Shown one piece after another: positions 42,117 to 54,100 of a stretch of DNA of 64,000 nt. Every line of letters starts with the position of its first letter. Position 1 is the stretch's first letter. Source of the DNA: Escherichia coli O157:H7. GTDB taxonomy: Bacteria; Pseudomonadota; Gammaproteobacteria; Enterobacterales; Enterobacteriaceae. The stretch lies in the NCBI RefSeq assembly GCF_013167455.1, contig NZ_CP038328.1; one strand, written 5' to 3'. Position numbers: made by a program.

Positions 42117-45100
42117 GTTTAAAAGACATCGGCGTCAGCGGATGTCTGGCTGAAAGGCCTGAAGAATTTGGCGCGTTAACAAAGCGGTTATGTAGCGGAT
42201 TGCAAATCCGTCTAGTCCGGTTCGACTCCGGAACGCGCCTCCACTTTCTTCCCGAGCCCGGATGGTGGAATCGGTAGACACAAGGGATTTAAAATCCCTC
42301 GGCGTTCGCGCTGTGCGGGTTCAAGTCCCGCTCCGGGTACCATGGGAAAGCTAAGAATAAAATCAAAGCAATAAGCAGTGTCGTGAAACCACCTTCGGGT
42401 GGTTTTTTCGTATTTGTATTTTGTGCAATGGCGGTAGAGTGGCGATGGTGTGGCGATATGCAGAAACAATGGTAGTGCACGTGCTGTTTAAACTCTAAGG
42501 ATGAAGCAGAATTCTTCTGCAGCTCCTCCGTATTTCGCATAGTGAACCAGGACCTCTGTTAAACAAAAATTTTTCTGGGATTTTTCCACTCGACTTTATT
42601 TTTCCTCCTGCAATCCACCAACAGGTACCTGCGCTAATCTATCTTTTTAATCTGACAACATCTTGGGAAAAGGCAAATTCGTCAGATTTACTGTTTTTCT
42701 GCTGCCTCGAATGCCGATGTCTGAAGCACTGATAAGAGTTCTATCTCTTTGATATAGATCTTTTTTTTGATGAATTGCACGACATATTATCGTTATGACA
42801 CCTTCTTGTTAAAGGTATTGTGCTCCTCATCTCGATTTTATGATGTGGGCTATGATTGGTTAGTAATTGAGTGTATCGGTATGCGATGTGGTTTATTAAT
42901 GGCAATCTGCCTTTGTTTAGTATCTTTTAGTGGATATGCAGCAACAGGAAAGTCTGATGCTCAGATCAAAAAAGAAATAATTAAAGAATCCATTGAATCT
43001 TATCCAGGCAATTGTGCGTGTCCTTATAATCATGCAAGGAATGGTAGTAGATGTGGTGGACGCAGTGCATATAGCCGTAATGGAGGGTATGACGTGGTAT
43101 GTTATGAGGGTGATGTTACCGATGAAATGATCCGGCAATGGAAGCAGGAGAATGCTGAGTAATCTCTTTTAACAGGTTTGTTGTGCGAGCATTATGTGCC
43201 GTTAACGGTTCACATCCCGAAAATCTGCGCTTCTGGCTGAAAGCCTGTCCGGTGGTCCTTCGTGAGCGATTTCATCAACAATGTAAGTGTAGATTCAATT
43301 GGTCAACGCAACAGTTATGTGAAAACATGGGGTTGCGGAGGTTTGGAACTATGGAAGAACGGAACAGGCTTCAGTGAAATAGCGAATATCCTGGGTTCAA
43401 AACCCGGAACGATCTTCACTATGTTAAGGGATACTGGCGGCATAAAACCCCATGAGCGTAAGCGGGCTGTAGCTCACCTGACACTGTCTGAGCGCGAGGA
43501 GATACGAGCTGGTTTGTCAGCCAAAATGAGCATTCGTGCGATAGCTACTGCGCTGAATCGCAGTCCTTCGACGATCTCACGTGAAGTTCAGCGTAATCGG
43601 GGCAGACGCTATTACAAAGCTGTTGATGCTAATAACCGAGCCAACAGAATGGCGAAAAGGCCAAAACCGTGCTTACTGGATCAAAATTTACCATTGCGAA
43701 AGCTTGTTCTGGAAAAGCTGGAGATGAAATGGTCTCCAGAGCAAATATCAGGATGGTTAAGGCGAACAAAACCACGTCAAAAAACGCTGCGAATATCACC
43801 TGAGACAATTTATAAAACGCTGTACTTTCGTAGCCGTGAAGCGCTACACCACCTGAATATACAGCATCTGCGACGGTCGCATAGCCTTCGCCATGGCAGG
43901 CGTCATACCCGCAAAGGCGAAAGAGGTACGATTAACATAGTGAACGGAACACCAATTCACGAACGTTCCCGAAATATCGATAACAGACGCTCTCTAGGGC
44001 ATTGGGAGGGCGATTTAGTCTCAGGTACAAAAAACTCTCATATAGCCACACTTGTAGACCGAAAATCACGTTATACGATCATCCTCAGACTCAGGGGCAA
44101 AGATTCTGTCTCAGTAAATCAGGCTCTTACCGACAAATTCCTGAGTTTACCGTCAGAACTCAGAAAATCACTGACATGGGACAGAGGAATGGAACTGGCC
44201 AGACATCTAGAATTTACTGTCAGCACCGGCGTTAAAGTTTACTTCTGCGATCCTCAGAGTCCTTGGCAGCGGGGAACAAATGAGAACACAAATGGGCTAA
44301 TTCGGCAGTACTTTCCTAAAAAGACATGTCTTGCCCAATATACTCAACATGAACTAGATGAACCGCCCCGGGTTTCCTGGAGAGTGTTTTATCTGTGAAC
44401 TCAGGCTGCCAGATCATCGTTTCCGATGGAAGCATAATAAGCTTTTTCTGCTTCTGCCGGAGGAGTATGGCCCAGCCTTCCCAGCAATCGTCGATTGTTA
44501 TACCAGTCCACCCACGTTAGTGTGGCCAGTTCCACTTCTGCACGGTTTTTCCAGCTCTTACGGTGTATTACCTCCGCTTTGTAAAGACCATTGATGCTCT
44601 CAGCCATCGCGTTGTCATACGAGTCGCCTGTACTCCCTGTTGATGCCAGTAATCCGGCTTCTTTTAGTCGCTCCGTATAGGCCAGTGACACATACTGAGA
44701 GCCTTTATCGCTGTGATGGATGGTGCCAGACGGACGACGGGCCCACAACGCCTGCTCCAGCGCATCCAGCACGAATGTCGTTTCCATAGACGATGAGACC
44801 CGCCACCCCACGATGTATCCGGCAAACACATCAATGATAAACGCCACATAGACGAAGCCCTGCCATGTGCTGACGTAAGTAAAATCAGCCACCCACAGCT
44901 GGTCAGGTCGTTCTGCCACGAACTGACGGTTTACGCGGTCGCCTGCGGCAACGGCTTTCCGGCTGATGGTCGTACGGACCTTTTTACCCCGGAGAACACC
45001 GGCAAGTCCCATAACCGCCATGAGACGTGCCACTGTACATCTGGCCACCCTGATTCCTTCCCGTAACAACTGACGCCAGACTTTACGCACACCGTACACC

Positions 45101-51100: not shown

Positions 51101-54100
51101 GAAAGCAGCCAAAAAGTTAAACAGTAAAATAATTAACAAGTTTGGTTGTGAAATAGGATTGGGCGCAAATATTGGAAAAGGGTTGACAATTCCCCATCAT
51201 GCTGGAATTGTTGTTCATTTTGCTGTTGATGCGGGTGAAAATCTGGTATTACGACAGAATACTACCATTGGACAGATAGATGGTGATATGCCTAGTTCAA
51301 GAGTAAAAATTGGTAGTAACGTTGATATCGGAGCTAATTGTTGCATCATTGGATTATCACGTAAAATTGGGGATAATGTAAAAATAGGTGCAATGTCTTT
51401 TATAAATAAAGATATACCATCAAACTGCACATATATAACTAAAAAGAGTGGTGTTGTATTGTATAAATAGAGTACATAAAGCCATCGATATTTCTGTCGA
51501 TGGCTTTTTCTTTTTATTGTGGGGCGACTGGCCACTCAACATCCGCTGCTACTGTTGTATCAACACGATTCAACAATACCCGATATGTCTTCCATGCAGC
51601 CAGTAACGATGCCTCTTCCTCCGTCGCAATATCCAAATCTACGGCATCCTGAAGTGGCGCAATATGCTCACTGGCTACCTGCATCAGGCTGTTTTTTGTT
51701 TCTTCTGCCTCCCGTACCCGAAACAGTTTTTCTGCTTCTGCATCTTTCGCCCAGGATGTGCCGTTCCACTTCTGACACTCTCCATCCGGCGACAACCAGG
51801 TAACATTTTCCGGTAACGGACCGAGTTCAGAAATAAATAACGCGTCGCCGGAAGCCACGTCATAAACCGTTTTACCCCGATGATCTTCAACGAGATGCCA
51901 CGATGCCTCATTACTGTTGAAAACAGCCACGAAGCCAGCCGGAATATCTGGCGGTGCAATATCGGTACTGTTTGCTGGCAGACCTGTATGAGGCGGAATG
52001 TATGCGTCACCTTCACCAATAAATTCATTAGTTCCGGCCAGCAGATTGAACCGCCCCGGGAATCCTGGAGACTAAACTCCCTGAGAAAGAGGTAAACAGG
52101 ATGACTAAAAATACACGTTTTTCCCCCGAGGTCCGTCAACGGGCAGTCCGTATGGTTCTGGAAAGTCAGGGCGAATATGACTCACAATGGGCGGCAATTT
52201 GTTCCATTGCCCCAAAGATTGGCTGTACACCAGAGACTCTGCGTGTGTGGGTTCGTCAGCATGAGCGGGATACCGGGGGCGGTGATGGTGGACTCACCAC
52301 CGCTGAACGTCAGCGTCTGAAAGAGCTGGAACGTGAAAATCGTGAACTGCGCCGCAGTAACGATATCCTTCGCCAGGCTTCCGCTTATTTTGCGAAGGCG
52401 GAGTTCGACCGCCTCTGGAAAAAATAATGCCGCTGCTGGATAAGCTGCGTGAGCAGTACGGGGTCGGACCGGTATGCAGTGAACTGCATATTGCCCCGTC
52501 AACGGATTACCACTGTCAGCAACAGCGACATCATCCGGATAAACGCAGTGCCCGTGCGCAGCGCGATGACTGGCTGAAGAGAGAGATACAGCGCGTATAC
52601 GATGAAAATCATCAGGTGTACGGTGTGCGTAAAGTCTGGCGCCAGTTGTTACGCGAAGGTATCAGGGTGGCCAGATGTACAGTGGCGCGCCTCATGGCGG
52701 TTATGGGACTTGCCGGTGTTCTCCGGGGTAAAAAGGTCCGTACTACCGTCAGCCGGAAAGCCGTTTCCGCAGGCGACCGCGTAAACCGTCAGTTCGTGGC
52801 AGAACGTCCTGACCAGCTGTGGGTGGCTGATTTTACTTACGTCAGCACATGGCAGGGCTTCGTCTATGTGGCGTTCATCATTGATGTGTTTTCCGGATGT
52901 ATCGTGGGGTGGCGAGTCTCATCGTCTATGGAAACGACATTCGTGCTGGATGCACTGGAGCAGGCGTTGTGGGCCCGTCGGCCGTCCGGCACAGTCCATC
53001 ACAGTGATAAAGGTTCTCAGTATGTATCACTGGCCTATACGGAGCGACTAAAAGAAGCAAAACTGCTGGCATCAACAGGGAGTACAGGTGACTCGTATGA
53101 CAATGTATTTTATTAGTTCACATACAATTATCAGATTATTCTGGGAATAAGGTCTGAATATTCTTTTTTATTTTATAAAAATTGCATTCAACTCCGCTAG
53201 GCTGATTAGCCTGGTATGTTTCCTTGATGCTAACGGTATTGAAGGGGAGGTTGTCCTCTGGCCATTCGGCCATCCAGTAGGCAAATGCTGGGTTGCGCTT
53301 TATGAGTGCTAGCCCAGCCAGAAAGGCCGCGCGTTGCGCGCGGCTGCGTTCGGAGGCTGGCAGGCTATCGAGGTAATTGCACGCCTCCTGTTCACTCTTG
53401 ACGGCGGCGGGCTTCAGATAGAAACTTATCCGTCTGGTTGGTGTCGTCATTGGTTTACTCCTTGTTCATTGCGTACAACCCATTAACCAGAGCAAACTGT
53501 GGCACCCCGTCCGCGATGAAAGTCGCATTAACTCCGCAGGCTTCGCGGATAGCGGTTGCCACAATCTCCGCCCCGCCACCGACAACCATCACCCGCCCGT
53601 AACCCGAAAAAACCGCCAGCGCGCGGATCACGCGTTGTTTCAGTGTTTCTTCCTTTTCACGAATAACCGCCATCAGGCTGGCGTAATGCGCGTCATTGTG
53701 GATGTGCTGGCGCAGCCAGGCTTCATCATGGCGATGTTCGATAATGGTATTGGCGATGTGGTGACTGGTGCGCATACCGTTAGTGGCCATCACCGACAGT
53801 ACGGCATCGGCCATCAGAGAAACGCCTACGTGTGGATCGCAAAACACCTGGCTGATACCTGCCAGTTGCCCCTGAACCTTTGCCACATCCAGCGTGGTTC
53901 CGCCCAAATCCACAATCAGCAGGGATTCAAACGGACTCATGTCAGCCAGTGCCTTAAAGCCAGCAGGAATGGATTCAGGCATAACCCGTACGTTACGGAT
54001 AGTGAATGCTTCGCCGTTCTGGTACTCCACCGGGCGCATGACGTTCGCTTTTTTGCGGTTGATGTTGGCCATGTCCGGCTGTGCGTTTGTATCGAAATAC

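Follow-up and report, generated by a model that had tools for sequence, protein, structure and literature searches.

The remnant of prophage Sp13 at leuZ

The window, a stretch of 64,000 nucleotides of Escherichia coli O157:H7, contains a group of phage tail genes bracketed by two insertion sequences. This region is the tail-gene remnant of the O157:H7 prophage Sp13, a P88-like member of the P2 group at the tRNA-Leu gene leuZ. Sequences matching the locus at 100% are placed between leuZ and yecA in O157:H7 chromosomes, and the Sakai annotation at the locus reads 'prophage Sp13, P2-like phage' (21,120 bp). The prophage is delimited by two att repeats with 98.4% identity, and the features at its ends and in its retained early region are as follows.

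42256..42342, + strand: tRNA-Leu leuZ, anticodon taa, prophage integration site (ARAGORN, Rfam tRNA, Sakai annotation)
42288..42411, + strand: left att direct repeat, 124 bp, beginning within the 3' part of leuZ (self-BLAST)
53136..57313, - strand: early region retained beside the scar (PHROGs, RefSeq annotation)
53136-53450, - strand: partition gene
53455-54414, - strand: ParM
54491-57313, - strand: replication endonuclease gpA
63694..63817, + strand: right att repeat, 124 bp, past the integrase and before yecA (self-BLAST)

The assignment to the P88-like P2 group is given by the sheath-tube-E-E'-T-U operon, gpD, gpA, the C/Cox switch and the integrase, which stand in P88 order, and by the att site. 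The tail operon and the divergent gene D are colinear, at 92-97%, with P88 (Xuanwuvirus, Peduoviridae), 500465-2 and the prophage of the ST131 strain JJ2434, and the replication and partition region is likewise colinear, at 92-97%, with P88 and related intact prophages (53136..57313 corresponds to P88 4978-9965 at 96%). Sp13 is nevertheless a remnant, in which the head, lysis, baseplate and fibre genes are missing. Intact P88-like phages carry a head-lysis-baseplate-fibre block of 15-18 kb, a DNA invertase and an invertible fibre segment, all absent from the O157 remnant, which instead carries a lambda-type tfa and an acetyltransferase module. Sakai shares with the window the leuZ-yecA site, the gene content, IS30, the frameshifted tape measure and a partial IS of 1057 bp. 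However, the sheath gene of Sakai is intact and its IS30 is free of IS629, whereas the window has a complete IS629 copy (copy A) and a 1030-bp deletion. Between copy A and the partial element (copy B') the following genes remain.

45669..46354, + strand: sheath gene FI, 3' part only, 166 codons missing (phrog_23 positions 245-475 of 496)
46354..50741, + strand: remaining tail operon (PHROGs; RefSeq annotation of identical sequence)
46354-46866, + strand: tube FII
46921-47286, + strand: gpE
47295-47450, + strand: gpE'
47437-50240, + strand: tape measure, frameshifted
50253-50741, + strand: gpU
50898..51470, + strand: cargo gene, serine O-acetyltransferase-like
51514..52046, - strand: tail fibre assembly gene, lambda Tfa type, first 46 nt gone (phrog_105 from profile position 29)

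In Sakai and 17B6-2 the full-length sheath gene measures 1185 bp, and the phrog_23 match of the fragment to the right of copy A begins only at position 245. The tail operon is colinear with P88 27594-32677 at 93.6%. The acetyltransferase-tfa-tail-fibre module, to which the cargo gene belongs, is also present in the P1-like phage JL22, whose intact tfa homologue (192 aa) runs 46 nt past the point where the IRL end of copy B' cuts the gene. The tail block is non-functional: its sheath is truncated, its tape measure frameshifted and its baseplate gone. An inversion of the sheath-to-U block relative to the remnants of gpD and tfa was first suspected, since in P2 gene D follows U on the same strand. 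It was ruled out, because gene D and the sheath gene natively diverge in P88, 500465-2 and the intact ST131 prophage, and the O157 sequence is colinear with those phages as one BLAST piece.

IS30, copy A and the 1030-bp deletion

On the left side of the tail block, two insertion sequences and a fragment of gene D are nested.

43213..43287, - strand: internal fragment of gpD (tail gene D) left of IS30 (BLAST to P88 gene D, 33596-33678, 91.6%)
43288..44358, + strand: IS30, 5' 1071 bp (NF033563, 259.7 bits; IRL TGTAGATTCAAT at 43288)
44359..45668, - strand: copy A, complete IS629/IS1203 element (IS3 family), 1310 bp, IRR at 44359 and IRL at 45668
45288-45614, - strand: orfA of copy A, 108 aa, intact
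44401-45291, - strand: orfB of copy A, 296 aa, intact
45668..45669, no strand: deletion junction (1030 bp lost), immediately at the IRL end of copy A

The part of gene D toward the C-terminus, beyond the fragment, is missing. When the left flank in the window and the right flank in CEC13091, which has an intact IS30, were compared with P88, the junctions read CAATGTAAG|IS30...IS30|AGTGCC against the uninterrupted CAATGTAAGTGCC, so that IS30 in gpD is a simple insertion with a 2-bp duplication (AG). The element has the transposase, the terminal repeats and the 2-bp duplication of IS30; its 3' end, absent from the window, was removed by copy A together with the 1030-bp deletion.

Copy A has the features of an IS629/IS1203 element, namely a length of about 1.3 kb, TG...CA terminal repeats (TGAACCGCCCCGG at both ends), orfA with a helix-turn-helix, orfB with a DDE/rve domain, and a -1 frameshift with a pseudoknot. 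The two reading frames overlap at AAAAAATGATG, NF033516 covers profile positions 1-86 and 93-369, and the ALIL frameshift pseudoknot lies at 45217-45333 (Rfam, 121.5 bits). In identical sister loci the RefSeq (PGAP) product name is 'IS3-like element IS1203 family transposase'. The target duplication expected of this family (3-4 bp) is absent from the window and intact in the sister strain 17B6-2, where it is the 3-bp AGA (ACTAGA|IS|AGATCTGG against ACTAGATCTGG in intact IS30). Sakai lacks this element, and copy A is a recent, lineage-specific insertion.

The window match to the 17B6-2 locus spans 13,031 bp against a 12,001-bp query, and positions 15170-16199 of that locus are missing from the window. 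The 1030 bp comprise the AGA duplication and the IS30 3' end (107 bp), the gpD remnant (267 bp), the D-FI intergenic region (157 bp) and, from the sheath gene, its first 499 bp. The sequence breaks off exactly at GGTTCA|, and the junction has a microhomology of only 1-2 nt (A/AA). These 1030 bp are the only loss attributable to copy A, and the loss is specific to the lineage of the window.

The exact junction (IS|ACACGATGG as one piece) was not found in 5426 complete RefSeq E. coli genomes. The same junction, 100% identical over 4988 bp, is present in the independent draft contig AOEF01000098.1 (GCA_000335015.2), in which 302 bp of the IS lead into the sheath fragment; it came from a look-up with the truncated sheath protein, which reported further contigs similar to it. 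The deletion is therefore documented by the window and by short-read draft contigs that end inside the IS. The IS copies are classic places for mis-joins, and the junction occurs in none of the complete genomes, so the 1030-bp gap might be ascribed to a collapse of two direct IS copies or to a contig mis-join; given that an independent draft is identical through the junction, we consider such an assembly artefact very unlikely.

Copy B' and the right-hand scar

The right-hand element interrupts tfa and ends in a scar.

52047..53103, + strand: copy B', diverged IS629-type element, element positions 1-1057, IRL intact (annotated in Sakai as 'IS1203 Family: IS3 partial')
52101-52427, + strand: orfA of copy B'
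53103..53104, no strand: composite scar of an old deletion of about 15-18 kb and a later deletion of about 261 bp

Copy B' ends 253 bp before the IRR, which is absent. Its orfB is cut after GDSYDN (...GDSYDN|VFY*), and the NF033516 match stops at profile position 316 of 369; the ALIL pseudoknot is retained at 52382-52498 (Rfam). A functional element has both terminal repeats and a complete DDE transposase; B' lacks the IRR and the end of its transposase. It is thus an immobile remnant of the IS629/IS1203 family, without a right end and with the transposase cut just before ...AMAES.

The smaller deletion took the last 253 bp of the element including the IRR end and 8 bp of the flank. The window reads GACAA|TGTATTTT against GACAACGCG...GGTTCA TGTTGGTA TGTATTTT, with a microhomology of about 1 nt; at this junction as at that of the 1030-bp deletion, the microhomology is uninformative on mechanism. 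The deletion of about 261 bp is a separate event, and since it crosses the IS end it is not of the transposase type. The resulting B' state is common to all common O157:H7 lineages including Sakai.

In strain 4276 a full-length IS is followed by TGTTGGTA and TGTATTTTATT, abutting a native flank that is uninterrupted in JJ2434 (GTGTTGGTCTGTATTTTATT), and the right-hand IS has no duplication (AGAT against TGTT). The P88 homology ends at 50747 and is picked up again at 53305, and the maps of P88, 500465-2 and the intact ST131 prophage place the head and baseplate block between tfa and par. Measured on P88, the portal-to-tail-fibre loss is about 14.8 kb, and against the ST131 relative it is about 18 kb. 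All P88-like genes between the flanks of the original element are gone while its ends were intact and without duplication, which is the signature of an IS-bounded deletion. This large loss (about 15-18 kb) is bounded by the right-hand element only. A genome in which the head genes stand between two IS copies in direct orientation was not found.

In the group of strain 4276 the IS subtypes are swapped, with a complete B-type element on the left and a complete A-type element on the right, and there is also a 12-nt IS-like filler. A single inversion was ruled out as the cause, because the tail block keeps its orientation. The swap is probably a result of gene conversion or replacement among IS copies, so that the right-hand element may have had a more complex history than one line of descent.

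The inverted pair and the probable order of events

A repeat finder reported one inverted pair (44612-45678 and 52037-53103, 95% complementary), of which about 10 nt are a chance extension into the flanks; a 1-kb repeat such as this is far beyond chance. The copies are inverted, lie 6378 bp apart and both match NCBIfam transpos_IS3. When the reverse complement of 44359-45668 was aligned with 52047-53103, they were homologous across the whole shared length (51 mismatches in 1057 bp, 95.18% identity, no indels), with identical runs of up to 125 bp. No target-site duplication is present at either copy in the window (CTAGA|copy A|ACACG and CAGAT|B'), nor around the whole unit, whose outer flanks are CTAGA and TGTAT. 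Our reading and alignment thus agree with the preliminary description, which had placed a full-length 1310-bp IS629-like copy between the cut IS30 3' end and the cut sheath 5' end, and a second, inverted and 3'-truncated copy at the interrupted tfa 5' end, both free of duplications. Its sequential nesting (IS30 into gpD, IS629 into IS30, then deletion) holds as well, and the duplications are absent, as it had proposed, as a mark of IS-bounded deletions.

Among 5426 complete E. coli genomes, of which about 270 have the locus, the tail block was never found in the flipped arrangement. With a synthetic inverted left junction as query, no genome reached a coverage of 80% or more; with the reverse-complemented tail block joined to par/gpA, which makes the search independent of lineage, none of the 272 records at 99% identity or more was flipped. 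In 263 genomes the U-acetyltransferase segment is joined to par on the same strand, as in the window. A recombinational inversion switch shows both orientations among isolates or within a population, and these genomes showed no flipped one. A compound transposon has functional outer ends and one duplication flanking the unit, which this pair does not. The locus resembles such systems in that two inverted IS copies bracket a few kilobases, but here the copies belong to different subtypes (95%), the outer end of one is missing, none of about 270 genomes holds a flipped isomer and the unit has no duplication. The inverted orientation is incidental; the copies are unrelated insertions of two IS subtypes.

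Based on these observations, we suggest that Sp13 was very probably eroded stepwise by insertion sequences, in a history of five steps. IS30 would have entered tail gene D first, by simple insertion with the AG duplication. A type B element, a diverged IS629-type copy with both ends intact and no duplication, would then have come to lie between tfa codon 16 and a site about 40 bp past the 3' end of the partition gene, with the loss of about 15-18 kb that held the portal, terminase, capsid, lysis, baseplate V/W/J/I and tail fibre genes. The deletion of about 261 bp (253 bp of element and 8 bp of flank) would have yielded B' in the third step. In the fourth, a standard IS629/IS1203 element (copy A) would have entered IS30 in one sub-lineage with the AGA duplication, and in the fifth the window strain would have lost the 1030 bp that directly adjoined the IRL end of this copy. 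Gone with them would be the AGA duplication, the 3' end of IS30, the fragment of gpD, 166 sheath codons and the late promoter region. The insertions and junctions come from comparison; what we infer is the relative order of the first two steps and the chemistry of each deletion.

The two IS-flush deletions (steps two and five) may have arisen by either of two routes, which could not be separated from sequence alone. One would be an aberrant transposase-dependent event, stimulated in O157 by the IS-excision enhancer (IEE); its only visible product is a deletion flush with the IS end with a junction ambiguity of 1-2 nt. The iee gene lies on SpLE1 in Sakai, and in this genome, if present, it would lie outside the window. 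The other route would need the same IS to have inserted a second time close by, as a direct repeat: the 1030-bp loss calls for a copy at sheath nucleotide 499/500, the large one for a copy near par or in tfa. Homologous recombination would then have removed the interval and one copy. Such a course yields the observed product (one intact IS, flanks from two sites, no duplication), the locus attracts IS629-type insertions, including one in the CEC13091 sheath gene, and the copy-out-paste-in movement of the IS3 family gives no adjacent deletions by itself. On the other hand, the predicted intermediate is in no complete genome, a second IS at sheath nucleotide 499/500 was found in none, and IS629-adjacent deletions dependent on transposase and IEE have been shown experimentally in O157. 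We therefore regard the two-insertion course as a serious possibility, yet one that we would hold only tentatively.

The preliminary description had gone further in two respects, attributing the missing head and baseplate genes to IS deletions at the pair and proposing that the pair could invert the 6.4-kb segment. Both inverted copies would then have acted together, and their orientation, the 1057 bp shared at 95.2% with long identical runs, and the missing duplications speak for this. The right-hand element does bound the loss, and the homology would in principle suffice for a RecA-dependent inversion. However, Sakai already lacks the head and baseplate genes yet has no copy A, sister strains such as 17B6-2 carry copy A with an intact duplication, 5% divergence reduces recombination, both inversion searches found no flipped genome, and 263 genomes have the window orientation. 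A role of copy A in the head and baseplate loss is already refuted, and joint action of the copies is improbable as a whole. Even less can be said for a composite transposon or a deliberately kept tailocin-like cassette, which we regard as practically excluded. A coherent tail gene set is indeed bracketed by two IS copies, but B' has no outer end, so the pair cannot act as a composite transposon; the block is also colinear with its native neighbours in P88-like phages, and it lacks baseplate and fibre genes besides having a damaged sheath and tape measure.

The stepwise erosion by insertion sequences is in keeping with what is known of IS629. As described in PMC9943667, with reference to Ooka et al. 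2009 and Kusumoto et al. 2011, IS629 causes small structural polymorphisms and IS-adjacent deletions in EHEC O157:H7. Copy A resembles the IS629/IS1203 of EHEC O157:H7 in its 1310 bp, termini, orfA/orfB and frameshift pseudoknot, in the 3-bp duplications of sister strains, in its prophage location and in the deletion flush with one IS end. Nothing differs in kind; only the 1030-bp allele is confined to the window and draft contigs, with no complete RefSeq genome. The two IS629-type elements record ordinary, already documented IS-driven decay and no new system. The locus has little importance beyond bookkeeping, with no new mechanism, gene or regulatory device, and it offers a clean worked example of IS elements dismantling a prophage, with the steps dated by comparing O157 lineages.

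Independent IS629-type insertions were found in other lineages, with a CTG duplication in TW14359 (IS30) and ATA in CEC13091 (sheath gene). Together with AGA in IS30, this makes three independent insertions, spread over different O157 lineages and confined to about 1.6 kb; the group of strain 4276 has a fourth IS arrangement. The IS30 copy and its immediate surroundings might conceivably be a preferred landing site for IS629-type elements, which we consider rather unlikely; if true, it would indicate that IS629 selects another IS or a local DNA structure as its target, and O157 sub-lineages could be timed with the locus as a fast molecular clock. The variability of the locus, in the presence and position of IS629 and in the 0-bp or 1030-bp deletion, suffices for its use as a sub-lineage marker.

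Gene content and affiliation of the Sp13 remnant

E. coli O157:H7 chromosomes contain the 12-kb stretch at 100% identity, placed between the glyW-cysT-leuZ tRNA cluster and yecA. The Sakai record labels the locus 'prophage Sp13, P2-like phage', and Sp13 itself is already known. The genes were assigned from PHROGs and RefSeq annotation, and the two IS copies by reading and aligning both strands.

Features of the Sp13 locus, in order
42288-42411 and 63694-63817: 124-bp direct repeat delimiting the prophage, the first copy starting inside leuZ
44359-45668, minus: copy A, 1310 bp
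After copy A, plus: sheath, tube, E, E', frameshifted tape measure and U
After U: acetyltransferase gene
After the acetyltransferase gene, minus: tail-fibre-assembly gene (tfa)
52047-53103, plus: copy B', 1057 bp
After tfa, minus: partition genes, ParM and replication endonuclease
Last in gene order: C/Cox region and integrase

The O157 segment running from the tail gene D remnant (D') through the sheath gene to U is colinear, as a single piece, with phages P88 and 500465-2 (92-97% identity), and the remnant is a member of the P2 group, on its P88-like branch. An inversion of the sheath side relative to gpD was suspected, because the gpD fragment (minus) adjoins the sheath gene (plus) in sister strains while D follows U in P2. 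This was ruled out, since in P88, 500465-2 and an intact ST131 prophage D and the sheath gene are divergent in the native arrangement. The tape-measure gene (47437-50240, plus) is broken into two frames that overlap (47401-49527 and 49404-50240), and every O157 relative, Sakai included, has it annotated as frameshifted or as a pseudogene, so that the tail operon was dead before the sheath gene was truncated.

Where P88-like phages carry an invertase and an invertible fibre segment, the window carries an acetyltransferase and lambda-type tfa module (50898-52046), about 91-93% identical to the module of the P1-like phage JL22 and also found at that identity in the O157 phage vB_EcoM-Ro157c2YLVW. 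By this comparison, the tail-fibre region is a mosaic. Inside the truncated tfa coding sequence, positions 51551-51749 (minus) match Rfam RF02111 'IS009', a candidate small-RNA family, at 191 bits (gathering score 117). At the other end, the roughly 800 bp from the att repeat to the gpD fragment (42411-43212, including an ORF at 42767-43162) lack homology to the right end of P88. Missing here are the C-terminal two thirds of gpD along with anything that lay beyond, and this breakpoint carries no IS.

The two IS copies and the nested insertions on the left side

The preliminary description had placed two inverted IS copies around the tail block, and both were recovered at their coordinates. A repeat finder returned one inverted pair only within 40-57 kb (44612-45678 versus 52037-53103, 95% complementary). 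Copy A, a complete IS629/IS1203, has TGAACCGCCCCGG at each terminus and intact reading frames (orfA, 108 aa; orfB, 296 aa). When we aligned it with B', the copies were homologous across 1057 bp with 51 differing positions, zero indels and a longest identical run of 125 bp. Each matches NCBIfam transpos_IS3 as well as the frameshift pseudoknot of the IS3 family, Rfam ALIL. B' has an intact left end, and its right side ends 253 bp before the element's right end. Its orfB terminates in ...GDSYDN plus three foreign codons, directly ahead of the AMAES motif of copy A orfB, which in IS3-family transposases holds the catalytic glutamate. IS629/IS1203 and IS30 are both known elements.

The left side records its steps in order. 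IS30 entered gene D by simple insertion, leaving a 2-bp duplication, AG. Canonical IS30 is 1221 bp long, and the copy here (window 43288-44358) appears shorter: 1175 bp lie between the terminal repeats in an uninterrupted relative (L003 5835-7009), and Sakai annotates it as 'IS30 partial'. Sakai carries this IS30 without IS629 and has a complete sheath gene of 1185 bp. In strain 17B6-2, copy A occupies precisely the position it has in the window and is flanked by the duplication AGA (ACTAGA-IS-AGATCTGG, compared with ACTAGATCTGG in the intact IS30); after it come the final 107 bp of IS30, a gpD fragment of 267 bp, 157 intergenic bp and the entire sheath gene. The window lacks exactly 1030 bp of the 17B6-2 locus (L001 15170-16199), starting from the last base of the IS, with the junction GGTTCA-ACACGATGG. 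Based on the AG around IS30, the AGA in 17B6-2 and the flush loss in the window, the nested and sequential damage that had been proposed is real: IS30 entered D, IS629 entered IS30, and DNA flush with the IS end was then deleted. By this comparison, copy A is a recent arrival by simple insertion. As first described, neither copy has target-site duplications in the window (CTAGA-A-ACACG; CAGAT-B'), but the AGA of 17B6-2 shows that for copy A a simple insertion came first.

None of the 5426 complete genomes searched contains the 1030-bp deletion junction. A draft contig from an independent assembly (AOEF01000098.1) does carry it, with 100% identity across 4988 bp, and an assembly error is therefore unlikely. 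This allele is the only item here that may be unrecorded; the decay of O157 prophages through IS629 has been documented before, and the finding as a whole is already known.

The portal-to-fibre deletion and the origin of IS-flush deletions

Homology to P88 stops at 50747, directly after U, and restarts at 53305 in a partition gene. The interval between tfa and the partition genes spans about 14.8 kb in P88 and about 18 kb in the ST131 prophage, where it encodes the tail fibre, baseplate I/J/W/V, tail completion, lysis, head completion, terminase, capsid, scaffold and portal; in the window it holds B' alone. As had been noted, B' interrupts the 5' end of tfa, its left end adjoining the gene 46 nt into the reading frame. 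In phage JL22 the tfa homologue is intact (192 aa), and a tail fibre gene lies upstream of it. In a group of O157:H7 genomes including strain 4276, the right-hand element is full length and its right end lies against TGTTGGTATGTATTTTATT, which is native in the ST131 prophage, reading GTGTTGGTCTGTATTTTATT. The flanks of this element, AGAT and TGTT, show no duplication. Since the ends of a single IS bound the loss of about 15-18 kb on both sides, as expected of an IS-mediated deletion scar, the loss is assigned to the right-hand element. The suggestion that IS-mediated deletions explain the missing head and baseplate genes thus holds for that element, but not for copy A, whose loss is 1030 bp. 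The window, Sakai and most O157 also have in common a later deletion, about 261 bp long, that took IS positions 1058-1310 together with 8 bp of flanking DNA; it crosses the IS end and is therefore not a transposase-type event.

IS3-family transposition is copy-out-paste-in and does not itself remove adjacent DNA; in O157, however, many polymorphisms with genomic deletions are reported to be due to IS629 (PMC9943667). The flush deletions may have formed in one step. Alternatively, a second IS could have inserted nearby in direct orientation, with homologous recombination between the copies following; this two-step route would yield the same product as observed, but a search for its intermediate found none. 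For the 1030-bp loss only, we consider the one-step route slightly more likely.

Tail-block orientation and IS insertions across O157 lineages

Copies A and B' could in principle recombine and invert the 6.4-kb segment between them, as previously proposed, but the flipped arrangement was found in zero complete genomes. A constructed query for the flipped left junction matched no complete E. coli genome at 80% coverage or more. The lineage-independent query, in which the reverse complement of the tail block was linked to the par/gpA side, matched 272 records at 99% identity or more and no genome at 80% coverage; the window's orientation, joined, occurs in 263 genomes. There is no fixed inversion among the available complete genomes.

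Different O157 lineages have received at least three independent insertions of IS629 type in a stretch of about 1.6 kb (window 43288-46200; loci L001, L003 and L004): at the IS30 3' end (AGA), the IS30 5' end (CTG) and in the sheath gene (ATA). CEC13091 has an intact IS30, with IS1203 in the sheath gene and the duplication ATA, and in TW14359 an element resembling B' (99.1% to B') sits close to the IS30 5' end with the duplication CTG. The stretch may be a local insertion hot spot, and these multiple insertions are the sole mildly notable pattern.

In about nine O157:H7 genomes, including strain 4276 (L002, NZ_CP017442.1, 7771-9092 and 16029-17345), the IS subtypes are swapped. The left element is a complete B-type; the right one is an A-type, also complete, whose IRL tip is of B-type. 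The orientation of the tail block is unchanged. This group has lost IS30 and gpD', its left inner junction contains an IS-like filler of 12 nt, GCTCTTACGGTG, and its tfa junction lacks 4 bp (AGAT). Gene conversion between IS copies, or replacement of one by another, is the probable explanation.
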